The position numbers were made by a program, and so were the translations under genes. A stretch of 64,000 bases of DNA, taken from contig NZ_AP017560.1 in NCBI RefSeq assembly GCF_003967015.1, positions 3,034,048-3,098,047 of the forward strand, written 5' to 3'. Positions 45,127-62,362 of this stretch are shown in pieces; position 1 is the stretch's first letter, and every line of letters begins with the position of its first letter. The notes below the pieces were generated by a model. The model was not told the origin of the DNA and made no database searches. It saw only the letters and a list, made by a program, of their open reading frames with translations. Source of the stretch: Pseudanabaena sp. ABRG5-3 (GTDB lineage Bacteria; Cyanobacteriota; Cyanobacteriia; Pseudanabaenales; Pseudanabaenaceae).

Positions 45127-45160
45127 GAAGAGGGTACTTTTGCACCCTCTTCTTTATTTA
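45127..45160. terminator. Bidirectional hairpin between pdxJ and the RND transporter gene.
   Basis: aagaagagggtacttttgcaccctcttctt. Confidence 0.55.
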
Positions 45161-48100
45161 TACAGGTTTGTTGTCTTCCTGTGGCTTTTCTGAAGAATCG
45201 CTATGATTGCTATTGGAGTTGCTATGTGAGTTGTCATGATTGCCATTTGAGTGATCATGATTCAGGCGATCGCCATTGCTCGACTCTCCATGAACACCAT
45301 GAAAGTGATTGCTGTAACTATCGCCATACTCAGCAACTAGTGCAGATTCAACAATACTGGCAGTTTTAGGATCATGCACATCTAATCGCATCCGTTTCTC
45401 AATGGTCTTCACGACAATATACAGAATCGGAACAATGAAAAGGCTGAGGAATGTCGCCACACACATACCACCCATCACCGCCGTCCCAATCGACTGACGA
45501 GCGGCAGCTCCCGCCCCTGTAGCGATTACCAGAGGAAAGATCCCGATAATCGTCGAGAAAGCCGTCATTAAAATAGGGCGTAATCTCTGTTGAGAAGCCT
45601 CAATTGCAGATTTAGTAATACTCAATCCGCTTTCATGTAACTGATTGGCAAATTCTACAATCAGAATCGCATTTTTACTTGCCATACCAATGAGCATGAC
45701 TAAACCGATTTGGGTATAGACATCATTGGCAAAATTGGGACTCGATAATCCACGAAACATCACTGCTAAAAGTGCACCCAGTACAGCAAGGGGTACAGTG
45801 AGCATAATGATCGTGGGATCGATGTAGTTTTCGTATTGAGCCGCTAGTACTAAAAATACAAAGACAATCCCTAAACCAAAGATAAAGAAGGAACTATTGC
45901 CAGAACCAATTTCTTCTAAAGATAAGCCTGACCATTCATAGCTAAAGCTCTTGGGCAAAACTTCCTTAGAAATCTTGTTCATAATATCGATCGCTTGTCC
46001 TGAACTTACTCCTGGAGCCGTATTACCAGTAATTTGCACAGATCGGAAGAGATTATAGTGGTTAATAATCGAAGGTCCAACGGTTTGGGTAACTTTGACT
46101 AAATTGCTGAGGGGGATCAATTGTCCTGCCCGCGATCGCACATAGAGCTTATTAATATCGTCAGGATTGGCGCGGAACTGAGCATCGGCTTGGACATAGA
46201 CGCGATAGGTACGCCCAAAGGTATTAAAGTCATTGACATATTGGGAGCCGAGCAAAGTTTGCAAGGTATTGTAAATATCTTGCAAAGATACTTGCAGCGC
46301 ATTTGCCTTAACGCGATCGACATCGACGGTCAACTGTGGCGTGTTGCCATTGAAACTTGGGCGTAGCCCCGCCAGCATCGGACGGCTAGGATCAGGATAG
46401 GTACTTGCCTTGCCTAATAATGCTCCCATTGTTTGCTCGATCACAGGGAAACCTTGGTTCGCCTTATCTTGCAACTGATATTCAAAACCACCGTAATTAC
46501 TCAAGCCTTGAATTGCTGGTGGGGGAAAGGGAACCACAAAGGCATCCTTAATGGAAATAAGGGAAGGCAATAAACCAAAGGGTTTGGGCGTAAATCCACC
46601 AATAATCTCCGCAGCCGATCGCGATCTTTCTTTCCAAGGCTTCAGCGTAGTAAACACAATGCCATTGTTAGGAGTATTGCCACTAAAGCTAAATCCTGCG
46701 ATCGCGAAAATATTGGAGATTTCAGGATAAACAGGTTCTCCCTTTTCATCCTTACGCCGCATGATGCCTTCGATATTTTCTAGAACCTTTTCCGTGTAAT
46801 TCAGCGATACACCTTCAGGAGCTTGGACAATCGTAATGAAATAGCCCTGATCCTCCTGTGGCAAGAATCCTTTCGGCACAACCGTATAGACCCAATAGGT
46901 TAAGAATAGGGATGCTACAAACAGAATCATCATGATTCCTTTGAGTTTGGTTGTCCTGACTAGAACCCAGTTATAGTTATGACGAACACCATCAATCACC
47001 CAGTTAACCCGATCAAAGAACCAATTGCTACGAGGTGTTTCCTGTTTTAGGAGGAAAGCTGCTAAGGTTGGCGAAAGGGTCAATGCATTAAAAGTGGAAA
47101 CAGTGATCGAAAAGGCGATCGTTAAGGCAAACTGTTTATACAATTGCCCCGTTGTTCCAGGGAAAAAGGCAACAGGCACAAACACCGCAATCAATACCAT
47201 TGAGCTAGCAATGACCGCACCCTGCAATTCATTCATTGCTGCGATCGCCGCTTTCACAGGTGCTTCTCCTTTTTCTTGAATGCGGCGCGTCACATCCTCC
47301 ACAACCACGATCGCATCATCCACGACCAGCCCTGTGGCAAGGGTTAAGCCAAATAGGGTCAGGGTATTGATATTAAAATTGAGTAGCTTGATGAAAATGA
47401 ATGTGCCGATCAGGGAAACGGGAATAGCGATCGCAGGAATTAAAGTAGAGCGCCAATTTTGCAGGAACAGATAAATAATCACGATGACGAGTGCGATCGC
47501 AATTATGAGTGAAATAATGACTTCCTCAGTTCCCGCTTCAATGAAACTGGTGGTATCGAAGGCAACCTCATAATTTAGGCCAGGGGGAAAAGTTGGTTTC
47601 AACTCCTCTAGAGCATGTTTTACAGCATGAGCCACATCTAAGGCATTGGCATCAGGCAACTGAGATACACCTAAACCAATCCCACGAGTGCCATTAAACC
47701 GCAATGCGGAACCATAATTTTCTGCACCAAGCTCTACTCGCCCCACATCACGGAGCTTGATCAGTGAGCCATCACTCGCAGTTTTAATCACAATATCCGC
47801 GAATTCTTCAGTACTTTTTAAACGACCTGTCGCGGAAATTGATAATTGATATTGCTGATCGGGAAGATTGGGTTGCTGTCCGATTTGTCCGACACCCACC
47901 TGCAAGTTTTGTTGCTGAATTGCCGCAACGACATCCTGAGCCGTTAAACCCCTTGCTGAGAGCCGATTAGGATCAAGCCATACCCGCATTGCATATTTGC
48001 GTTCACCAAAGATGATGACATTACCAACACCCTTAACTTTCTTAATCGCATCAACAATGTAGAGATCGGCGTAATTACTCAAATACAGATCGTCATATTC

Positions 48101-48553
48101 TCCCTTCTCGGAATACACACCGATCGCAAACAGAAACCCTGAAGATTCTTTACTAACCCTAACTCCCGTTTGTTGGACTGGAGCAGGTAACTGTGATTGC
48201 ACGCTGGAGACACGATTTTGCACATCCACCGCCGCAATATCTTTATTTTTGCCCAAATCAAAAACGAGATTGACAGAACTAGTTCCATTATTGGCACTAG
48301 TAGAAGTAATGTAGCGAACTCCTTCAATCCCATTTAATTCTCTTTCAAGAATATTGGTAACTGTAGATTCTACAACTTCGGCATTTGCACCGACATAGTT
48401 TGCCGTAACCGTTACCTTAGGGGGCGTAATTTCAGGATATTGAGCAACAGGTAAGATAAAAATACAGGCTGTTCCCAATAATGTGATGATGACAGAACAG
48501 ACTGTCGCAAACACAGGTCGTCTGATAAAAAAGTCAGATATGGATAGCAGCAT
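45158..48553 (-). CDS. RND efflux permease (AcrB/HAE1-like) with a His/Asn/Ser-rich cytoplasmic tail.
   Basis: 1131 aa with the typical 12-TM and two large periplasmic loops architecture. The N-terminus is LSISDFFIRRPVFATVCSVIITLLG. The C-terminal tail is HDHSNGNHDNSHSNSNSNHSD. Confidence 0.9.
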   Translation of the reverse strand: MLLSISDFFIRRPVFATVCSVIITLLGTACIFILPVAQYPEITPPKVTVTANYVGANAEVVESTVTNILERELNGIEGVRYITSTSANNGTSSVNLVFDLGKNKDIAAVDVQNRVSSVQSQLPAPVQQTGVRVSKESSGFLFAIGVYSEKGEYDDLYLSNYADLYIVDAIKKVKGVGNVIIFGERKYAMRVWLDPNRLSARGLTAQDVVAAIQQQNLQVGVGQIGQQPNLPDQQYQLSISATGRLKSTEEFADIVIKTASDGSLIKLRDVGRVELGAENYGSALRFNGTRGIGLGVSQLPDANALDVAHAVKHALEELKPTFPPGLNYEVAFDTTSFIEAGTEEVIISLIIAIALVIVIIYLFLQNWRSTLIPAIAIPVSLIGTFIFIKLLNFNINTLTLFGLTLATGLVVDDAIVVVEDVTRRIQEKGEAPVKAAIAAMNELQGAVIASSMVLIAVFVPVAFFPGTTGQLYKQFALTIAFSITVSTFNALTLSPTLAAFLLKQETPRSNWFFDRVNWVIDGVRHNYNWVLVRTTKLKGIMMILFVASLFLTYWVYTVVPKGFLPQEDQGYFITIVQAPEGVSLNYTEKVLENIEGIMRRKDEKGEPVYPEISNIFAIAGFSFSGNTPNNGIVFTTLKPWKERSRSAAEIIGGFTPKPFGLLPSLISIKDAFVVPFPPPAIQGLSNYGGFEYQLQDKANQGFPVIEQTMGALLGKASTYPDPSRPMLAGLRPSFNGNTPQLTVDVDRVKANALQVSLQDIYNTLQTLLGSQYVNDFNTFGRTYRVYVQADAQFRANPDDINKLYVRSRAGQLIPLSNLVKVTQTVGPSIINHYNLFRSVQITGNTAPGVSSGQAIDIMNKISKEVLPKSFSYEWSGLSLEEIGSGNSSFFIFGLGIVFVFLVLAAQYENYIDPTIIMLTVPLAVLGALLAVMFRGLSSPNFANDVYTQIGLVMLIGMASKNAILIVEFANQLHESGLSITKSAIEASQQRLRPILMTAFSTIIGIFPLVIATGAGAAARQSIGTAVMGGMCVATFLSLFIVPILYIVVKTIEKRMRLDVHDPKTASIVESALVAEYGDSYSNHFHGVHGESSNGDRLNHDHSNGNHDNSHSNSNSNHSDSSEKPQEDNKPV

Positions 48554-50162: not shown

Positions 50163-50375
50163 TTAATGAAAAATAATCGCAAGTCCTAGCAAAGTAGCGA
50201 TCACCCCAAAAATAGTTAAAGAAAAATGGAATAAAGAAGTACTACCTTTCTTGACCATATTCCGCATAGCGAGTTTGACAAAACTGTCTTGTGGTTTACC
50301 AGCAGATTGCTTGTTAATGTTATTACTGTTATCGTTGCTAGGGATATTCGACTCGGTGTTTAAATCGCTATTCAT
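50163..50375 (-). CDS. Small hypothetical single-TM protein.
   Basis: 70-aa ORF with a polar Asn/Ser-rich N-terminus and a C-terminal TM helix. Weak support. Confidence 0.25.
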   Translation of the reverse strand: MNSDLNTESNIPSNDNSNNINKQSAGKPQDSFVKLAMRNMVKKGSTSLFHFSLTIFGVIATLLGLAIIFH

Positions 50376-50711
50376 TATTTTAGTTGTAATAATTTATCCA
50401 GATTGAAAAATGAATGTTAAATATTTTAGACAATAGGTAACCTAAGCTACATAGCTGGATTGCTATTTTTAGAATCTAAACTTCATAACTAGGGAATGTT
50501 AGTTAAAAGTTAGTCTTGTCTTGTTTATATTTCCTTAAAGAAAGTTTATCATCAACGTTAGCTACAACCTATAGAATTAATAGAATATCTTGATCTTCTA
50601 GTCAGGATAATTTAGTACAAAATCAGTATAAGTAATTTTGCTGTTGTGTAGTACAGTAAGCACAGGCAGAATTTAAATGCCGAACATAGTTAATTCAAGG
50701 AGAACATTACT

Positions 50712-50930
50712 ATGGCAGTCGAAAAAGTCAACTCTTCCTCTAGTCTAGCGGAAGTTATTGATCGTATTTTGGATAAGGGCATTGTCATTGATGCATGGGT
50801 ACGAGTCTCATTGGTGGGAATCGAACTACTATCAATTGAAGCTCGCGTTGTCATTGCCTCTGTGGAAACATATCTCAAATATGCTGAAGCAGTTGGTCTC
50901 ACAGCCTCGGCGGCAGTACCTGCTGCTTAG
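50712..50930 (+). CDS. gvpA: Gas vesicle structural protein GvpA.
   Basis: 72 aa. [63 protein letters not shown] is near-canonical GvpA. Confidence 0.95.
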
Positions 50931-51424
50931 TAAGTATATCTAGCAATGCTAGTCATAAGTTACTAAACAATAGATCTATTAGCCTACCGAATTCTTCTTT
51001 GCTCCCTTCTCACTAATGAATATCTTGTTGATTTTGTAGTTTATTGTTGTTAATTTTTTATTGACAAAACAGTAAATCTTTGGCGTTGCAAAACATAGTA
51101 GTGATTTACTGGATTTATCCCGTGGAGTAGCGTCCCCGTACCTACCCTATGAGCTTTTGGACAACCACGGGGGGTTGTCCCTAACAGTTTCATTATGAAA
51201 ATAATGCAACGCCAATTTGTTAGCAGGGTATTAATATAGTGAGGAGGGATATAAGTTCTGATATTTTAATTTTTGTTTTGGTTTTTGGGTTTGACTCAGT
51301 TTATTGATGGATGAAACAGTTTAGGCGAGCAAAGTTGAGTGATCATTTTGCACGGGTAGTTTTTTATAGAGTCGAATCTATGTTGATTTGATAAATTTGA
51401 AAGAGTGAATTTGAGGATAACGTT

Positions 51425-52567
51425 ATGGCTTCTTTGATGCAAGGATTTGCAGAAGCAAGGCAGCGACGACTACAGGAACGTGCAAATTTTTTAGCTGAGC
51501 AACAGTTGGCACGACAAGAGCGAGAAAAAGCTTTACAAGCACAGTCAGAGGCTACGGCTGTATATTTGGCTCATGCTGAGCAGACTCGTCTAGCATGGGA
51601 ACAGGGTAGACAGGCGATCGCGGAAAATGCTTTGGCATCTCGACAGGAAGAACTGCAAAATCGTGCTAGTCAGGTATCGCAATATTTGCAAGATCTCAAT
51701 TCAAATCGTGTGCAGCAAGCTACCGAAGATAGCGAAGAACGCGCCCAAGAAGTTAGAACTCGCACCTTTAAAACGCGATCGCAGTTAAAACATATCCACA
51801 AAGCAAGGATTCGGACGGGGAAAGCGGATCGTGATCAACGACAACAACTAACTCAAGAGAGAGCCGCTTTTACACAAATGCAGATCGAAGATATCAACAA
51901 GGCTCGCTTGGCTAGTGCTAAGGCGGCGGCAGAGCAGAGATCTCAAGAGGTGCAAGCCAGAACGGCTGAAGTCTCGGCACAAATCCAAGCTACGACTGAG
52001 CAAAGACTTGCCCAAGCAAAACAAGATGCTGTCTCAAGAGCTAAAGAATTTAGCGATCGCGTGGCAAATGTCAAAACATCTTTAGAACAACTTGAAGCCA
52101 CTCGTCTTGCCGAAGCTCAGGCTCAGGCGACCAAACTAAATGATTTTCGGGCTAATTTAAGTGCTTCAGTTTGGTCAGGCTCCCGTTCTGTTGCTGCACC
52201 TCAGCCTATTGCCAAGGTATCAGCCAATAATACCTATGACAACTCCGCTAGCCTTAGCCCTAAACCGAAAAAGAAAGGTTCTAAATCGGAAAGTGTTGTT
52301 GTAGCCCCAGAGCCAGAGGTTGCCAAGCCTGTCAACCTAGAGCCTCCTAAGGAAGCTCCTAAAGAGACTCCCAAAGCCTCCAGCAAAATCGAGCAATTTG
52401 TGGTTGACTATGTGGCTCAATTATCGACAAACTCTAGCCTATTAGAAGTTGTCAACGATCGCGACACCGTCAGAGATTTACTGGCTCAAGGTGCAAACAC
52501 GCTCAAAGTCGATCCTTCTGATATCCTGAACACATTACTACAAATGGCAGAAGGCTCATCAACATGA
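51425..52567 (+). CDS. gvpC: GvpC-like gas vesicle outer-layer protein, unusually long (380 aa), with a Ser/Pro/Lys-rich distal segment.
   Basis: Sits in the canonical gvpC position between gvpA and gvpN. The N-terminus MASLMQGFAEARQ resembles GvpC starts. Gln/Ala/Arg/Glu-rich helical repeats follow. Confidence 0.55.
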   Translation: MASLMQGFAEARQRRLQERANFLAEQQLARQEREKALQAQSEATAVYLAHAEQTRLAWEQGRQAIAENALASRQEELQNRASQVSQYLQDLNSNRVQQATEDSEERAQEVRTRTFKTRSQLKHIHKARIRTGKADRDQRQQLTQERAAFTQMQIEDINKARLASAKAAAEQRSQEVQARTAEVSAQIQATTEQRLAQAKQDAVSRAKEFSDRVANVKTSLEQLEATRLAEAQAQATKLNDFRANLSASVWSGSRSVAAPQPIAKVSANNTYDNSASLSPKPKKKGSKSESVVVAPEPEVAKPVNLEPPKEAPKETPKASSKIEQFVVDYVAQLSTNSSLLEVVNDRDTVRDLLAQGANTLKVDPSDILNTLLQMAEGSST

Positions 52568-53445
52568 CCACAGTTCTCCATGCCAATGCGCGTCAATTTG
52601 TCAGCACGGACTTTACCAAGCAAATTGTCCGTCGGGCGTTACGCTATTTACAATCAGGCTTTGCAATTCATTTGCGAGGACCTGCTGGTACGGGCAAAAC
52701 TACTTTAGCGATGCACCTTGCGGGCTTAGTTGGTAGACCAATGGTTTTGATCTATGGTGATGAAGACTTGCGATCGTCGCAATTGGTTGGTTCTAACTCA
52801 GGCTATTCCCGTAAAAAAGTTGTCGATAACTACATCCATTCAGTTTTGAAAGTTGAAGATGATCTGCGTCAAAATTGGACAGACTCACGTTTAACATTAG
52901 CGGCGAAGGAAGGATTTACGCTCATCTATGATGAGTTCAACCGATCGCGCCCTGAAGTAAATAATGTATTGCTCAGCGCTCTCGAAGAGAAGCTCATCGT
53001 CTTGCCTCCCGACAGTTCGCAATCGGAGTATGTACGAGTGCATCCCTTGTTCCGAGCGATCTTTACTTCTAATCCTGAAGAATATGCAGGGGTACATCCC
53101 ACACAGGATGCACTGCTCGATCGCATGATCACCATTAACATTGGTGAAGCGGACGTTGAAACCGAAAAGCAAATCTTGGTGAATCGGGTAGGCTTAGATC
53201 GCACCCAAGCCCTAAAATTAATCAACTTGATTCGTGGCTATCGTCGTCAAGTGCAATGCAGCAAAGCATCGAGTTTGAGAGCCTGTTTGCTGATTGGGAA
53301 GATTTGCGTTGAGCATGAAATTCCTGTCTCTGGCAAAGATGATGACTTCCGCGCACTGTGCTTTGATGTGTTGATTTCTCGCTATGGTAGTGGTGAGCCT
53401 GAGTCAGAACTTGGACTCGCTAAATTATTGGATCAAATACCTTAA
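52564..53445 (+). CDS. gvpN: Gas vesicle AAA+ ATPase GvpN.
   Basis: Walker A LRGPAGTGKTT and Walker B LIYDEFNRS. CbbQ/NorQ/GvpN-type. Overlaps the gvpC stop by 4 nt. Confidence 0.9.
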   Translation: MTTVLHANARQFVSTDFTKQIVRRALRYLQSGFAIHLRGPAGTGKTTLAMHLAGLVGRPMVLIYGDEDLRSSQLVGSNSGYSRKKVVDNYIHSVLKVEDDLRQNWTDSRLTLAAKEGFTLIYDEFNRSRPEVNNVLLSALEEKLIVLPPDSSQSEYVRVHPLFRAIFTSNPEEYAGVHPTQDALLDRMITINIGEADVETEKQILVNRVGLDRTQALKLINLIRGYRRQVQCSKASSLRACLLIGKICVEHEIPVSGKDDDFRALCFDVLISRYGSGEPESELGLAKLLDQIP

Positions 53446-53783
53446 TGTCTCAAGCGATTAAATCTCAAGCAATAAACACTAGTACAACTGGCTCTTCCCT
53501 TGCCGATATTCTGGAAAGAGTATTAGACAAGGGCATTGTCATTGCAGGTGATATCACAGTGTCCGTGGGCAGTGTGGAGTTGTTGAGTATCAGAATTCGG
53601 TTGCTAGTAGCCTCGGTAGATAAAGCGAAGGAAATCGGGATTAACTGGTGGGAGTCTGATCCCTATTTGTCTTCAAGAACACAGGAACTTCTTGCCTCTA
53701 ATCAACAGTTATTAGAGCGTGTCAATCTATTGGAAAGAGAATTAGCCGCAGTTAGACAATTAGAGGGAAATCAAGAAAAGTAG
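53445..53783 (+). CDS. gvpJ: Gas vesicle protein GvpJ (GvpA/J/M family).
   Basis: SLADILERVLDKGIVIAGDITVSVGSVELLSIRIRLLVASVDKAKEIGINWWE has a GvpA-like core with a C-terminal extension. Confidence 0.8.
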   Translation: MSQAIKSQAINTSTTGSSLADILERVLDKGIVIAGDITVSVGSVELLSIRIRLLVASVDKAKEIGINWWESDPYLSSRTQELLASNQQLLERVNLLERELAAVRQLEGNQEK

Positions 53784-53862
53784 CTTAATAAAGTTTTGAA
53801 GATTTCAATTTGCCATAGGCAAATTGAAATCTTCAAAACTTTATTGGGCTTAATTTTGGTGT

Positions 53863-55071
53863 TTACACTGTGGAGTTTATGAACTTCTTTAAACAGATTA
53901 AAGAAATAGCTAAGGCAAATACGCTCAAAAATGCTCCATAAATAACAGGAATTTCTCCTAGTGCAATGGCAACACTTGCAAAAATTGCGGTTGCTAAACC
54001 ACTGCCGCCAAAATATAACCCTGTACCAAAGCCCGCTTGATTTGGCGGAACCATCGCTAAGGCTAAGGGAATTGTATTAGTTAAAACTAAACCTAGCGCG
54101 ATAGAAGCGATCGCACTTATCAATATTAAATAAATTCCATTTTCGCTCAGTAAGCAAAGCGTAAGACAGCCAGCAATTATGGTTAATCCCCAGCCCATGC
54201 CAAAGGCTGCCTTCTGTCTACCAAATAGCGATCGCAAAGGTAATGTCGCCAAACCAGCAATTAACAGAATTCCTGATTGAGAATATTCCACTGCAAGATG
54301 ATCAATTGCTGCAAAAAGATGATGGGGGAGGATATGGAGTAGTAAATTAATTTCTAAGCCAGAGCCTAGACCAACGGCAAAGGGCAAGCTGTAGGCGATC
54401 ACCGAATTTGGCGTTAAATTTGCGATGGTAGGTTCGGGACTTGTTGTCGTAGCTAAATGTCTGGGCATGGATGACCATAGCAGCACTGAACCAATTAAAA
54501 GCGCGATCGCTCCCAAAATAAAAGTGAGGGAAGCACCAAGCTGTTTGAGGATGAGTCCTAATATGGGACTGGTGGCGCTCGTAACTGCCAAAACGAGAGC
54601 TAAAACGGAATTAGCTTGAGGTAGTTGACTCGTTGGCGCAAATCCTTGAAGTAAAGCGATCGCGGGTCCACGAAAGATAATCATGGCGATTACCCAAATT
54701 GTCATCATTACTGGCACAATCCAACGCAGGTGCTCCGCAAGCTGCACTTCGACTAACCAAGAAACAATCACAAAGATTAGCCCTGCAAGGGTCACACCCA
54801 CAACAACCTGTGGCAAACGACTCCCAAATCGACCAAGAAGGTGATCGGAAAACCAGCCGACAATTGGTTCCACAATTGCGCCTAGTAATCCCTGAAGAAT
54901 GCCTAGCCATGATGCTAAATCCACAAATCCAATCTTTGCCAAAATTCTCGGCTGATAAAATCCGTAAGCAATCCAGCTAAAGGTAATTGCAGCTAATAGG
55001 GCTGCGAGTCCCCAGACTTGTCGCCAAAGAATTTTAGTCGGAGGACTTGGGAAAGCAGTAGTTTGCAGCAT
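53863..55071 (-). CDS. Major facilitator superfamily transporter.
   Basis: 402 aa with about 12 TM helices, and a D/R-containing loop motif between TM2 and TM3 (GWFSDHLLGRFGSR). Confidence 0.8.
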   Translation of the reverse strand: MLQTTAFPSPPTKILWRQVWGLAALLAAITFSWIAYGFYQPRILAKIGFVDLASWLGILQGLLGAIVEPIVGWFSDHLLGRFGSRLPQVVVGVTLAGLIFVIVSWLVEVQLAEHLRWIVPVMMTIWVIAMIIFRGPAIALLQGFAPTSQLPQANSVLALVLAVTSATSPILGLILKQLGASLTFILGAIALLIGSVLLWSSMPRHLATTTSPEPTIANLTPNSVIAYSLPFAVGLGSGLEINLLLHILPHHLFAAIDHLAVEYSQSGILLIAGLATLPLRSLFGRQKAAFGMGWGLTIIAGCLTLCLLSENGIYLILISAIASIALGLVLTNTIPLALAMVPPNQAGFGTGLYFGGSGLATAIFASVAIALGEIPVIYGAFLSVFALAISLICLKKFINSTV

Positions 55072-58765: not shown

Positions 58766-61700
58766 ATGTACATTAAAAATGTAGAACTCACCAGATTTAA
58801 GTCCTTTGGCTCGACCACATCGATCCCACTTTTGCAAGGGTTTACGGTAGTTTCGGGACCTAACGGGTCGGGCAAGTCAAATATTCTTGATGCGCTGTTA
58901 TTTGCGCTAGGACTGGCAGGCTCAAAGGGGATGCGAGCCGATCGCTTGCCAGATTTGGTCAACCAAGCCCATAGCAAAAAGGGGCGAATGGTCGAGGCAA
59001 TTGTGACTGTGACCTTTGCCCTCGAAGAAGAAGAGATGGCGGCGTTGCAGAGCGAAGGGGTAGATATTCCTAAAGCTGAGGGACAGACTATTGGCGAATG
59101 GACGGTAATGCGGAAGCTACGCGTGACCAGTCAGGGTACTTATACTTCCACCTATTACATTAACGGCACACCTTGCAATTTAAGCGAATTGCATGAACAA
59201 TTAGCTAAATTCCGCATTTATCCCGAAGGCTATAACGTTGTATTACAGGGGGATGTTACAGGAATTATTTCCATGAATTCGCGAGAACGTCGCGAGATAA
59301 TTGATGAGTTGGCAGGTGTCGGCGAGTTCGATCGCAAGATTTCTACAGCTAAAGACAAATTAGATGATGTCAAAACTCAAGAGGAAAGATTTCGGATTGT
59401 TGAACAGGAACTAGTTGCCAATAAAGAAAAACTAAAAGGCGATCGCGTTAAGGCTGAGAAGTATAAGGCGCTACGATCTGAATATGAACAGATGGAAGCA
59501 TCGGAAGCGGTACTCAAACAAAGGGAAATCACCTATCAGCAGTCAATTCGCAATGTAGAACTGGTCAATAATAAGGAGCAATGTAGCAATTTAGCTAAGT
59601 CCTTAGCAGAAATCGCACAGGTAATTGAAACGGGAACAGTTCAGCTTAATGAACTTAGCGATCGCGTCCATACCCTTGGCGAAGAGGAATATCTCTCGGT
59701 TTCCAGCAATCTATCGGCACAACAGGCCGAATTGCGCGGTTTACAACGCCAACAACAGTCGCTAACTAGTTCCTATCAAAACAATCAAAATCACATTGTT
59801 AATACCCAAGAGGAAATTGATCGACTCCTAAGGGAAGCGGAAGAATTAGAGTCGCAAAAACAATTTAAAGAAGAAGCAGTAGCTACTGCGGAAAAGGCTC
59901 GCGATCAACAGGCTGCGATTGTTTCCCAATATCGGAAGGAAGTCCAAGCGATCGCCTCTGCTTCGTCAGAATGGGTGCGCCAACAAACACAACTCAGGCA
60001 GGATGTAGATAGCGCTCAAGCCGAACTTGATCCCCAAAAGCAAGAGCAAACTAGAATTCGTGAAGTACTCAATCAGCGATCGCTCCAATTAGAATCGCAG
60101 GAAAAGGAACTGCAAGAAATCATGGCTGGCGAAGGACGCTATGCTGTGGATATGCTCTCTAATCAGTCTTTGGAAGATGCTTTGCGTTTACAAGAAGCAG
60201 AAGTTAGTGGGGCTGAATCCCTTGTCCAAACCCTCGCTAAAAATCTTGCTGAAGCCCAACTAGAGGTACAACTTCAGAATGAAACCATTGATCGCCTTAA
60301 TCAAGAACAGCGCATCAAAACACGCCAACTGGATAAACTAGAGGCACAGGTACAGGCAAGCCGAGAGGTTCAAGGAACTAAAGCTTCACAGGTGATTATC
60401 GAAGCAGACATGTCAGGGGTTTATGGGCTGGTCGCGCAATTAGGACTAGTGGAACCTCGCTATCAATTGGCGCTAGAGATCTGTGCAGGTGGGCGTTTAG
60501 GAAACCTTGTCGTTGAGAGCGATGAGGTGGCTGCCGAGGCGATCGCCTTACTCAAAAAAGAAAGGGCAGGAAGGGCAACTTTTCTCCCATTAAATAAATT
60601 ACAGCCTGCCAAATTTCCATCACGGGTAGAAGCGAAGAAATTAGGGGCAATTGATTACGCCTTTAATCTTGTCACCTATGAAGATCGCTATCAAGATGTC
60701 TTCTCCTTCGTATTTGGCAATACCCTCGTCTTTGAGAATCTTGATCAAGCGAGATTCCACATTGGCAAATATCGCATGGTCACCCTCGAAGGCGAAATCC
60801 TCGAAACTTCAGGGGCGATGACAGGCGGTAGCGCTCCTTTACATACCAGCCTTCATTTCGGTAATGCCAAGCCTGCAGAATCTTCAGAAACTAAGCAATT
60901 ACGAGATCGCCTTTTAGAAATCGATCAAATGTTAGCGCGACTAAATCAACGATTACGTGGCGCATTGACAGGCATTGCTAAATATGAAGAGCAATTGCAA
61001 GCTGCCAGAACTACCCACCGTGAAGCACAACTCAAACGCGATCGCATTTACGAACAAATCGAACGCAATAGCCGCGATCGCTCTCGACTGCAAGATCAAA
61101 TTCAACAAACCCGTGCTGCCATTGAAATTGGGCAAGCACAACTAAATACCTTTGATGGCAACATTGCCGAACTAGAAGCAAAATTACTGGTTAAACGTGC
61201 CGAGCTTGCGGAACTAGAGAAGTCGGGAACGCATTCCCGTTGGTTGCAGGGTCAAGAAGCTTTGCAAGGTCAAGAAGCTCTGCTTAACAGTGCCGAAATT
61301 GAACTACGGACTGCTAAACAACAGTTGGGTGAATTAGAAAATCAACATAAACTTGCCTTAGAAAAAATGGCACAGCGCCAAACCCGTCTCCAAGAACTGC
61401 GTAGCACCCAAACAGAACTGATCAATAGTACGGCCCAAATCCAAAATCAGATTAAACAAACTGAAAATGCGATCGCTTCTTACCAATCGCGCCTAGAAGT
61501 CCTCGAACAAACCATCGGCGCAGCAAAACAAGAACGTGATGCTGTCGAGCGATCGCTCCGCGCCCAACAGCAACAGCAACAACAACAGGAATGGCAACTC
61601 CAGAAAAATCATGAGCGTCAAGCTGAATTAGAACAACAAATCGCTCAATATAAGGAACAACTCGATCAAATTGAACTACCTGATCCATTGCCTGAAGTCC

Positions 61701-62362
61701 CTGAGACGATGACTCTAGAACAGTTACAACTAGAGCAACGTCGCTTGCTGAAGCGCATTCAGTCAATGGAACCTGTCAATATGATGGCGATCGCGGAATA
61801 CGAAGCCACCTCCGAACGGCTCGATGAACTCAGTAGCCGTCTAGAAACCCTCAATCAAGAACGAACTGAACTGCTAATTAGAATTGAGAACTTTACAACT
61901 TTGCGTCAACGCGCCTTCATGCAAGCCTTTGATGCTGTCAATGGACATTTTAAAGAAATCTTTGCGGAACTCTCTGATGGTGATGGCTATCTGCAATTAG
62001 AAAACCCCAATGCACCTCTTAGTGGTGGTTTAACCCTAGTCGCTCACCCCAAAGGCAAACAGGTACAACACCTTTCATCCATGTCTGGTGGTGAAAAATC
62101 CCTCACGGCTCTTAGTTTCATCTTTGCTCTCCAGCGCTATCGTCCTTCTCCCTTCTATGCCTTTGATGAGGTGGATATGTTCCTCGATGGGGCAAATGTG
62201 GAGCGTCTCTCGAAAATGGTACGCAAGCAAGCCAATCTCGCCCAGTTCATCGTGGTGAGTCTCCGTCGTCCCATGATCGAAGCCTCCGAGCGCACCATCG
62301 GCGTAACTCAAGCACGCGGCGCTCATACTCAAGTATTAGGCTTAGAACTGCGATCAAGTTGA
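58766..62362 (+). CDS. smc: Chromosome segregation protein SMC.
   Basis: N-terminal Walker A FTVVSGPNGSGKSNILDAL, long coiled coils, a hinge, the C-terminal signature LSGGEKSLTALSFIFAL and the D-loop FYAFDEVD. Confidence 0.95.
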   Translation: MYIKNVELTRFKSFGSTTSIPLLQGFTVVSGPNGSGKSNILDALLFALGLAGSKGMRADRLPDLVNQAHSKKGRMVEAIVTVTFALEEEEMAALQSEGVDIPKAEGQTIGEWTVMRKLRVTSQGTYTSTYYINGTPCNLSELHEQLAKFRIYPEGYNVVLQGDVTGIISMNSRERREIIDELAGVGEFDRKISTAKDKLDDVKTQEERFRIVEQELVANKEKLKGDRVKAEKYKALRSEYEQMEASEAVLKQREITYQQSIRNVELVNNKEQCSNLAKSLAEIAQVIETGTVQLNELSDRVHTLGEEEYLSVSSNLSAQQAELRGLQRQQQSLTSSYQNNQNHIVNTQEEIDRLLREAEELESQKQFKEEAVATAEKARDQQAAIVSQYRKEVQAIASASSEWVRQQTQLRQDVDSAQAELDPQKQEQTRIREVLNQRSLQLESQEKELQEIMAGEGRYAVDMLSNQSLEDALRLQEAEVSGAESLVQTLAKNLAEAQLEVQLQNETIDRLNQEQRIKTRQLDKLEAQVQASREVQGTKASQVIIEADMSGVYGLVAQLGLVEPRYQLALEICAGGRLGNLVVESDEVAAEAIALLKKERAGRATFLPLNKLQPAKFPSRVEAKKLGAIDYAFNLVTYEDRYQDVFSFVFGNTLVFENLDQARFHIGKYRMVTLEGEILETSGAMTGGSAPLHTSLHFGNAKPAESSETKQLRDRLLEIDQMLARLNQRLRGALTGIAKYEEQLQAARTTHREAQLKRDRIYEQIERNSRDRSRLQDQIQQTRAAIEIGQAQLNTFDGNIAELEAKLLVKRAELAELEKSGTHSRWLQGQEALQGQEALLNSAEIELRTAKQQLGELENQHKLALEKMAQRQTRLQELRSTQTELINSTAQIQNQIKQTENAIASYQSRLEVLEQTIGAAKQERDAVERSLRAQQQQQQQQEWQLQKNHERQAELEQQIAQYKEQLDQIELPDPLPEVPETMTLEQLQLEQRRLLKRIQSMEPVNMMAIAEYEATSERLDELSSRLETLNQERTELLIRIENFTTLRQRAFMQAFDAVNGHFKEIFAELSDGDGYLQLENPNAPLSGGLTLVAHPKGKQVQHLSSMSGGEKSLTALSFIFALQRYRPSPFYAFDEVDMFLDGANVERLSKMVRKQANLAQFIVVSLRRPMIEASERTIGVTQARGAHTQVLGLELRSS

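Follow-up and report, generated by a model that had tools for sequence, protein, structure and literature searches.

Positions 50712 to 53783 of a 64,000-nucleotide stretch of Pseudanabaena sp. ABRG5-3 DNA (contig NZ_AP017560.1; the whole stretch is hereafter called the window) carry four gas-vesicle genes, gvpA, gvpC, gvpN and gvpJ. The region most probably represents the core gas-vesicle operon of Pseudanabaena, which encodes a long, divergent GvpC and relies on other gvp genes acting in trans from unlinked loci. The evidence comes from the layout of the operon, the repeat structure of its 380-residue GvpC, the conservation of the locus across the genus, and the positions of gvpK and a gvpW-like gene in a related species.

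The four open reading frames (ORFs) lie on the + strand in the order given by the initial annotation, and their identities were obtained by comparison with Pfam, NCBIfam and Nostoc. The gvpA gene (50712-50930), present in one copy in the 64-kb window, encodes the major gas-vesicle shell protein of 72 residues; its product matched PF00741 (E = 2e-17) and NF006874 (136.9 bits, cut-off 100) and, over 64 residues, shows 95% identity to Nostoc GvpA. The ORF map places the 380-residue gvpC ORF at 51425-52567, with a conserved GAGG ribosome-binding site upstream of its ATG. The gvpN gene (52564-53445) encodes an AAA+ ATPase of 293 residues, which covered the full TIGR02640 model (362.9 bits, cut-off 266.8), matched PF07728 (E = 8e-20) and showed 58% identity to Nostoc GvpN. 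The gvpJ gene (53445-53783) encodes a minor GvpA-like protein of 112 residues (PF00741, E = 1e-16), whose best match was Nostoc GvpJ (64% over 98 residues, E = 1e-39), compared with 44% identity to GvpA. On the haloarchaeal NCBIfam GvpJ model it scored 58.7, under the cut-off of 125, as expected because the window GvpJ is bacterial.

Direct reading of the sequence revealed that the gvpN start overlaps the gvpC stop as ATGA and that the gvpJ start overlaps the gvpN stop as TAATG; gvpC, gvpN and gvpJ are therefore translationally coupled. Ten nucleotides past the gvpJ stop begins a bidirectional intrinsic-terminator-like hairpin (53793-53839), detected by a terminator scan and by direct reading, with a 22-bp perfect stem, an ATA loop and T-rich tails on both strands. 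The operon therefore ends structurally after gvpJ, and the hairpin looks like a terminator that serves the gvp operon on one strand and, on the other, the convergent gene for a major facilitator superfamily (MFS) transporter. This MFS gene (53863-55071, - strand; PF07690, E = 1e-11) is separated from gvpJ by a spacer of 79 bp, in keeping with the 80 bp reported earlier, and marks the boundary outside the gvp system. The Rfam scan of the gvp locus returned only spurious sub-threshold microRNA matches to the terminator stem; no Rfam family reached its gathering score in the 64-kb window, and no tRNA was found there.

The 380-residue protein is very likely a divergent GvpC, because its position, its 33-residue periodicity, its repeat motif, its hhalign matches and its predicted helix all point to this family. 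In the window, as in each of the 17 orthologous loci fetched, a gene of this type occupies the interval from gvpA to gvpN. Autocorrelation of residues 1-256 (BLOSUM62, against 500 shuffles) gave z = 8.0, 6.1 and 5.3 at lags of 33, 66 and 99 residues, respectively, with lag 33 the highest, and the same test gave 15.4 and 10.6 for Nostoc GvpC. The initial annotation had assigned GvpC repeats to this protein and had named a lack of 33-residue periodicity as the sign of a wrong assignment; the periodicity is present. Lag 33 was also the highest in 8 of 10 other members of the Pseudanabaena GvpC family and in most long GvpCs of other cyanobacteria. When the 33-residue register was stacked from a C-terminal anchor, six full repeats and one partial repeat were obtained with the motif xQ[LI]......R[LI]AxAK, which aligns with the Nostoc repeat pattern FLxETxKxRFAQAK.

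Alignment of the protein to GvpC families, which had been proposed along with the first description of the locus, gave clear matches. On comparison by hhalign, an alignment of 55 family sequences matched the Nostocales GvpC alignment with a probability of 94.9% (E = 4e-8) and the long Oscillatoriales GvpC alignment with 97.1% (E = 6e-11) over the repeat region. The matches were in register from the N-terminal MASLMQ/MALLDEW through the shared end motif FRxNLxxS[VI][WF]G. A tblastn search with Nostoc GvpC reached the 380-residue ORF at E = 0.009. AlphaFold2, run with the 55-sequence alignment, predicted one helix over residues 2-250, with predicted local distance difference test (pLDDT) values mostly >90. 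An exact look-up of the protein returned no identical sequence, and its homologues, where named, are all from Pseudanabaena. RefSeq labels the orthologues mostly 'hypothetical protein', because curated GvpC models miss the Pseudanabaena family, while UniProt L8N2E2 (P. biceps PCC 7429, 332 residues) carries the name 'Gas vesicle protein GvpC'.

Three regions were recognized in this GvpC. Residues 1-250 (51425-52174, + strand, as for the other parts of the gene) comprise about seven degenerate 33-residue repeats, which autocorrelation, hhalign and AlphaFold analyses predict to form one continuous alpha-helix ending in FRANLSASVW. Residues 251-316 (52175-52372) form a linker rich in Pro, Lys, Ser and Ala, predicted from its composition and pLDDT (<50 over residues 247-316) to be disordered. 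Residues 317-377 (52373-52555) form a small C-terminal domain predicted to contain four helices; modelled alone, it reached a mean pLDDT of 81, with structured blocks at 89-93. Residues 1-256 contain 18% A, 14.5% Q, 11% R and 10% E, and residues 257-320 contain 17% P, 16% K, 14% S and 14% A, in agreement with the Gln/Ala/Arg-rich helical repeats and the Ser/Pro/Lys-rich distal part described initially.

Within the family, repeat regions fall into discrete lengths of 250, 217, ~198, ~180 and 162 residues, the two main classes being 33 residues apart. The window GvpC belongs to the longest, 250-residue class. Its residues 174-206 (51944-52042), which appeared as an hhalign insert against the family consensus, amount to one extra 33-residue repeat and are missing from the majority 217-residue class. 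The linker varies from 47 to 156 residues. Mean pairwise identity in the family is 63% for the repeats, 35% for the linker and 86% for the C-terminal domain, and the last value therefore indicates purifying selection. The C-terminal domain had no match in Pfam, and a hidden Markov model (HMM) of it, run over all fetched cyanobacterial gvp loci, matched gvpC orthologues only. By these comparisons it is the best-conserved part of the family, without a detectable homologue outside Pseudanabaena-type GvpC.

The layout of the locus was compared across the genus. A divergent DUF3285 gene on the - strand, followed by gvpA, an ORF of 323-380 residues, gvpN and gvpJ, was observed in all 17 orthologous loci fetched, several of them from complete genomes, and the layout is therefore a genus trait and not a local accident. 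It is the ancestral state of the genus rather than a local rearrangement. The operon of these four genes was seen in >15 Pseudanabaena genomes or contigs, and the gene 3' of gvpJ varies by species (MFS, NusB, RNase II, transposase or condensation-domain protein); transposase genes adjoin gvpJ in three of the fetched loci (L009, L015 and L016). The window GvpN sequence is identical on eight public contigs, including the 4.73-Mb chromosome CP101416.1. This chromosome, the nearest complete genome, is ~93% identical to the window over 19 kb, and a Joint Genome Institute (JGI) metagenome contig is ~95% identical; by these values the window belongs to a Pseudanabaena related to, but distinct from, that of CP101416.1. 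Possession of gas vesicles is diagnostic for Pseudanabaena (PMC12961181).

We further examined where the other gvp genes are located. Neither tblastn with the reference, the annotated Nostoc sphaeroides plasmid gvp cluster, nor HMMs built from 28-80 cyanobacterial homologues and run against all ORFs of at least 35 residues revealed gvpK, gvpF, gvpG, gvpV or gvpW in the 64-kb window. The only HMM matches came from the Gas_vesicle-like part of the GvpK model, which cross-matched gvpA and gvpJ. The initial annotation had stated that these genes are not contiguous with the operon, and indeed none was found after gvpJ, beyond the MFS gene or elsewhere in the 64 kb. A search with Nostoc GvpK returned Nostocales only among its best 120 matches. 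With a divergent GvpK representative from a 50%-cluster library as the seed of a genome-collection scan, gvpK was found in 11 Pseudanabaenaceae loci, each time as a solo gene without a further gvp gene less than 10 kb away. The P. biceps O153 copy (PF05121, E = 4e-31) has guaA on one side and hisG/citrate synthase on the other.

A GvpL/F-family gene adjoins gvpK in a relative of Synechococcus PCC 7502, and its use as a query led to the P. biceps orthologue. The gvpW-like protein of P. biceps (P0377) matched PF06386 (E = 5.5e-34) and showed 32% identity over its full length to the Nostoc protein at the gvpW position, compared with a partial match of 29% to GvpF. The 3.97-Mb P. biceps O153 scaffold JAATWA010000001.1 carries gvpK in 780749-801057 (~0.79 Mb), the gvpW-like gene in 2133380-2154066 (~2.14 Mb) and gvpA-gvpC-gvpN-gvpJ in 2743478-2763696 (~2.75 Mb). 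Both genes are thus 0.6-2 Mb from the operon on one scaffold. The minor genes had been expected to lie elsewhere or to be missing; the former holds for gvpK and the gvpW-like gene of P. biceps O153, and gvpF, gvpG and gvpV were not located.

Several points weigh against the interpretation of a core operon with a divergent GvpC and dispersed partner genes. The dispersal was seen in P. biceps (66% identity between its GvpC and that of the window) and not in the window's own genome. Family HMMs gave no match for canonical gvpF, gvpG or gvpV in the window or within 10 kb of the gvpA, gvpK and gvpW-like loci, a result that fits a reduced gene set. The GvpC models of Pfam and NCBIfam did not match the 380-residue protein (E <= 1), and PF01304 matched only 1 of the 55 family members, at E = 0.042. 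For helical repeat proteins of biased composition, hhalign scores may be inflated, and the link of this GvpC to gas vesicles is a computational one, drawn from sequence and predicted structure.

We consider it unlikely that the gas vesicles are made from a reduced set of gvpA, gvpC, gvpN, gvpJ and gvpK plus one GvpL/F-family protein, without canonical gvpF, gvpG and gvpV. Besides the family HMMs, two further searches agree with such a set: in a metagenome scan with a GvpF alignment, none of the best 80 of 162 relatives was a Pseudanabaena-like contig (the best tetranucleotide correlation among these 80 loci was 0.89, and they were Nostocales-type clusters), and a plasmid search by tblastn with GvpF as the query yielded none from Pseudanabaena. 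However, the HMM searches covered ~60-100 kb of a 4-5 Mb genome, and the metagenome scan extended to those best 80 relatives. To our knowledge, GvpF and GvpG are required in every genetically tested system (Halobacterium and Bacillus megaterium), which also counts against a reduced set. In addition, GvpF accessions are given for Pseudanabaena sp. SR411 (WP_094529688) and Synechococcus PCC 7502 (AFY73702) (PMC7204071). A second GvpL/F gene probably exists, because AFY73702 differs from the gvpW-like protein of Synechococcus PCC 7502, AFY72716.

It is very unlikely that the 380-residue protein is not GvpC but an unrelated coiled-coil or scaffold protein, such as a tether or regulator, in the gvpA-gvpN interval, with Pseudanabaena lacking GvpC. 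The failure of the Pfam and NCBIfam models, the 'hypothetical protein' labels that RefSeq gives to most orthologues, and the fact that the best-conserved part is a C-terminal domain missing from canonical GvpC would all be expected of such a protein. They are countered by an autocorrelation maximum at exactly 33 residues with harmonics at 66 and 99, by length variants within the family that differ by 33 residues, and by the R[LF]AxAK repeat motif and FRxNLxxS[VI][WF]G end motif common to known GvpCs. The hhalign probabilities of 95-97% and the plan of helix, linker and small domain, which recurs in long GvpCs of other cyanobacteria, also favor GvpC. That the four genes are a decaying remnant of a once complete cluster, in strains that no longer make gas vesicles, is hardly credible: the 64 kb without gvpK/F/G/V/W, the transposase genes next to gvpJ in some relatives (the three loci named above) and the failure of every search made to find gvpF/G/V are set against four intact ORFs kept in >15 genomes with their start/stop overlaps preserved, a GvpN identical across 8 contigs, a GvpC C-terminal domain averaging 86% identity, intact gvpK and gvpW-like genes retained elsewhere, and the diagnostic status of gas vesicles in the genus (PMC12961181).

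In the core operon as we interpret it, GvpA would build the ribbed shell, GvpC would reinforce it from outside, GvpN would act as the AAA+ assembly ATPase, and GvpJ, a minor GvpA-like protein, would take part in assembly. Cryo-electron tomography of Anabaena gas vesicles located GvpC along the ribs, with one 33-residue repeat per approximately four GvpA molecules (PMC10185304). Because the window GvpA is 95% identical to Nostoc GvpA, the window GvpC may be expected by analogy to bind in the same manner. Its helix of ~250 residues (seven repeats) would then run along the GvpA ribs and span ~28 GvpA per molecule. The flexible linker of ~65 residues would hold the four-helix domain off the shell with a reach of tens of nanometres, and the strong conservation of this domain therefore suggests a specific partner. 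The operon would end after gvpJ at the strong bidirectional terminator, and the remaining gvp genes would act in trans, with GvpK, the GvpW-like protein and probably GvpF, GvpG and GvpV coming from unlinked loci. Separate loci for gvpK and the gvpW-like gene were observed in the congener, and gvpF, gvpG and gvpV presumably lie elsewhere in the genome.

A rather doubtful extension of this mechanism is that the C-terminal domain, placed ~65 disordered residues from the shell-bound helix, is a docking module that clusters or tethers vesicles at poles or cross-walls, or that recruits an assembly factor from an unlinked locus. If true, it would explain the polar aerotopes characteristic of the genus, and GvpC would position the organelle besides reinforcing the vesicle. 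The natural series of 4.5-7 repeats would then tune vesicle width and strength independently of docking.

The spacer between gvpA and gvpC measures 494 bp and contains two distinct parts. A 12-locus Pseudanabaena alignment revealed a conserved element at 50927-50990 (+ strand), consisting of a stem-loop over the gvpA stop (50927-50966) and an invariant 28-nt block (50963-50990; CTAAACAATAGATCTATTAGCCTACCGA). The stem-loop core, CTAGC at 50940-44 and GCTAG at 50948-52, is invariant, and the loop is variable. Thirteen pairs were predicted, one of which, in the middle tier, shows a compensatory change from CG to UA in 3 sequences. Stem-loop and block are conserved in 11 of the 12 loci and are missing from L010, whose spacer is 68 bp. 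This element could mark where an abundant gvpA transcript ends or is processed.

Locus comparison further revealed a clade-specific insertion of ~250-370 nt in the spacer (51030-51400, + strand), which is found only in the window, L001-L006 and L015; the gvpA-gvpC spacers of other species are 68-280 bp. Within it, the hairpin GGACAACC-ACGGGG-GGTTGTCC (51159-51180) occurs only once in the window, where chance would give 0 matches, and is nested in an inverted repeat with arms of 11 bp (TTGGCGTTGCA, 51080-51090; TGCAACGCCAA, 51205-51215). The initial annotation was right about this hairpin, and the measured spacer is in keeping with the 495 bp given there. RNA folding of 51070-51230 gave -48.7 kcal/mol (z = -2.4), moderately better than shuffled controls. 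A role of the hairpin as a terminator or attenuator was rejected: it lacks a following T tract and so does not resemble a terminator, the terminator scan did not list it, and it is missing in most species. A repeated mobile element was also rejected, as no second copy of hairpin or insertion was found in any sequence examined. We treat the insertion as lineage-specific and not as a terminator.

On the other side of gvpA, the divergent DUF3285 gene (50163-50375, - strand; PF11688, E = 1e-22) is separated from it by an intergenic region of 336 bp, in which a consensus scan alone returned two overlapping sigma-70-like promoter matches (50503-50552, + strand). Two other genes of the window were noted. 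The ORF at 58766-62362 (+ strand, 1198 residues) is conserved in orthologous loci, with no Pfam family on record for any of them. The RND (ACR_tran) transporter at 45158-48553 (- strand, 1131 residues) has an unusual C-terminal tail rich in His, Asn, Ser and Asp (…HDHSNGNHDNSHSNSNSNHSDSS…), which could bind metal.

Other non-heterocystous cyanobacteria often have split gvp clusters. Among genomes of the Leptolyngbya and Nodosilinea types, many carry gvpA-N-J-K without gvpF-G, or solo gvpF-G pairs. Among the fetched loci of Leptolyngbya-, Nodosilinea- and Phormidium-type cyanobacteria, gvpA-N-J-K only was seen in L031, L033, L034, L036, L050, L053 and L059, an inverted gvpG-F ~5 kb upstream in L057, L080, L089, L090 and L098, and solo gvpF-G in L113, L117, L128, L140, L148, L152, L156, L164, L171 and L182. 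In several split loci, no gvpC was recognisable between gvpA and gvpN with Nostoc GvpC as the query.

Further observations concern gvpK and the gvpW-like gene. A DUF1997 gene lies directly upstream (0-3 nt) of the gvpW-like GvpL/F gene in L102:3687-5173, L103:4870-6356, L104:1111-2606, L105:106-1592 and L023:8395-9872, loci that belong to Pseudanabaena-type contigs or to a relative of Synechococcus PCC 7502; the two genes are not adjacent in P. biceps (L100). The DUF1997 gene could be an unrecognised gas-vesicle accessory gene. In a cluster of 197 proteins (P0195; Thermostichus / Synechococcus JA-2-3B'a), products of 424-436 residues combine an N-terminal HAD phosphoglycolate-phosphatase-like domain with a complete C-terminal GvpK, and this HAD-GvpK fusion is conserved across hot-spring Thermostichus genomes. 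A solo gvpK at L019:10001-10494 adjoins apcA/apcB/apcC on a cyanobacterial metagenome contig and has a frameshift near residue 110, indicating that it is probably a pseudogene. Its assignment to Pseudanabaena was rejected on its tetranucleotide correlation to the window, 0.86 compared with 0.95-0.98 for Pseudanabaena loci.

The locus is an ordinary gas-vesicle operon of Pseudanabaena and overturns nothing in current understanding. Albouy, Castets and Tandeau de Marsac reportedly described in 2001 (DNA Seq 12:337-344), judging by the title, the gvp cluster of Pseudanabaena sp. PCC 6901. The likeness of the window to that cluster, from the same genus, is by title only, and the window comes from a different species. 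By that title, the locus is an orthologue of a published cluster, and it is present in dozens of public genomes. Novelty is modest because of this 2001 title and because ~40-kDa Planktothrix GvpCs are already known. In the literature searched, there was no description of megabase-scale dispersal of gvpK and gvpW-like genes in Pseudanabaena, of a 33-residue quantisation of GvpC length across the genus, or of a near-invariant lineage-specific GvpC C-terminal domain.

Gas vesicles have been engineered as acoustic and magnetic resonance imaging reporters, and GvpC is the main handle for collapse pressure and surface display. For such engineering, the Pseudanabaena family offers a natural series of GvpCs differing by whole 33-residue repeats, as well as a small, highly conserved domain that a flexible linker joins to the repeats. 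In practice, the family also leaves a gap in annotation. The scatter of gvpK and the gvpW-like gene over megabases shows that gas vesicles can be assembled without co-localisation of the genes; when gas-vesicle capacity is judged from draft genomes or metagenome-assembled genomes (MAGs), a contig with gvpA-gvpC-gvpN-gvpJ only is therefore no sign of an incomplete pathway.

We compared the window GvpC with those of known systems. The initial annotation had called it unusually long, which holds only against the Nostocales GvpCs in the fetched comparison loci (127-226 residues). However, in Kamptonema, an Oscillatoriaceae MAG, Kaiparowitsia and a Prochlorotrichaceae MAG, the gene between gvpA and gvpN has a product of 274-451 residues, and the length of the window GvpC is normal for Pseudanabaena. 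These long GvpCs also consist of a repeat helix, a linker and a C-terminal domain of ~60 residues. Benthic Planktothrix has a ~40-kDa GvpC with degenerate 33-residue repeats, and its C-terminal segment resembles Geitlerinema GvpC and GvpN (Pancrace et al. 2017, PMC5259702). The GvpC40 proteins of benthic Planktothrix, Geitlerinema, Kamptonema and others share with the window GvpC the mass of ~40 kDa, the repeats, the linker, a C-terminal domain of ~60 residues and the position between gvpA and gvpN. They differ in that their C-terminal domain is winged helix-turn-helix (HTH)-like, with weak MarR and TrmB matches, and is also found at the GvpN C-terminus. On comparing the Pseudanabaena C-terminal domain alignment with the winged-HTH-like tails of 5 long GvpCs and Nostoc GvpN, hhalign gave a probability of 1%, and the window GvpN (293 residues) has no C-terminal extension. 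The architecture is therefore common, and the terminal module is lineage-specific.

The winged-HTH-like end of ~60 residues (RLxEIE...R.Q.VDxLRSL..KG....RDR.Y), a fold of the DNA-binding type, was observed in the 274-451-residue GvpCs at L044:7087-8142, L062:966-1997, L077:7336-8268, L084:7321-8145 and L088:510-1865. The same domain ends the 429-residue GvpN of Nostoc sphaeroides plasmid p4 (L008:4766-6055), where the Pfam MarR/TrmB matches are weak.

The GvpC of Halobacterium salinarum (~380 residues, 7-8 repeats) resembles the window GvpC in length, in repeat number and in having a non-repeat C-terminal tail (PMC4586473). Its repeats of 32-40 residues, its acidic tail and its gvpACNO neighbourhood set it apart, and by sequence it could not be related to the Pseudanabaena C-terminal domain. 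The cluster of the Nostocales and Anabaena flos-aquae has the gvpA-gvpC-gvpN-gvpJ order, and its GvpC shares the 33-residue repeat and the end motif. Anabaena flos-aquae GvpC has five 33-residue repeats in 193 residues, whereas the window GvpC has ~7, followed by the linker and the C-terminal domain, and is missed by PF01304. The Nostocales cluster runs on directly into gvpK-F-G-V-W (L056, L069, L082 and L083), whereas the window operon stops at the terminator. According to the part of PMC5259702 that refers to Beard et al. (2000), Planktothrix gvpC length variants (16-28 kDa) are tied to vesicle width and critical pressure. The Planktothrix variants are tandem gene copies in one filament, whereas those of Pseudanabaena occur between species and are known from sequences alone; in both genera, the repeat region changes length stepwise.

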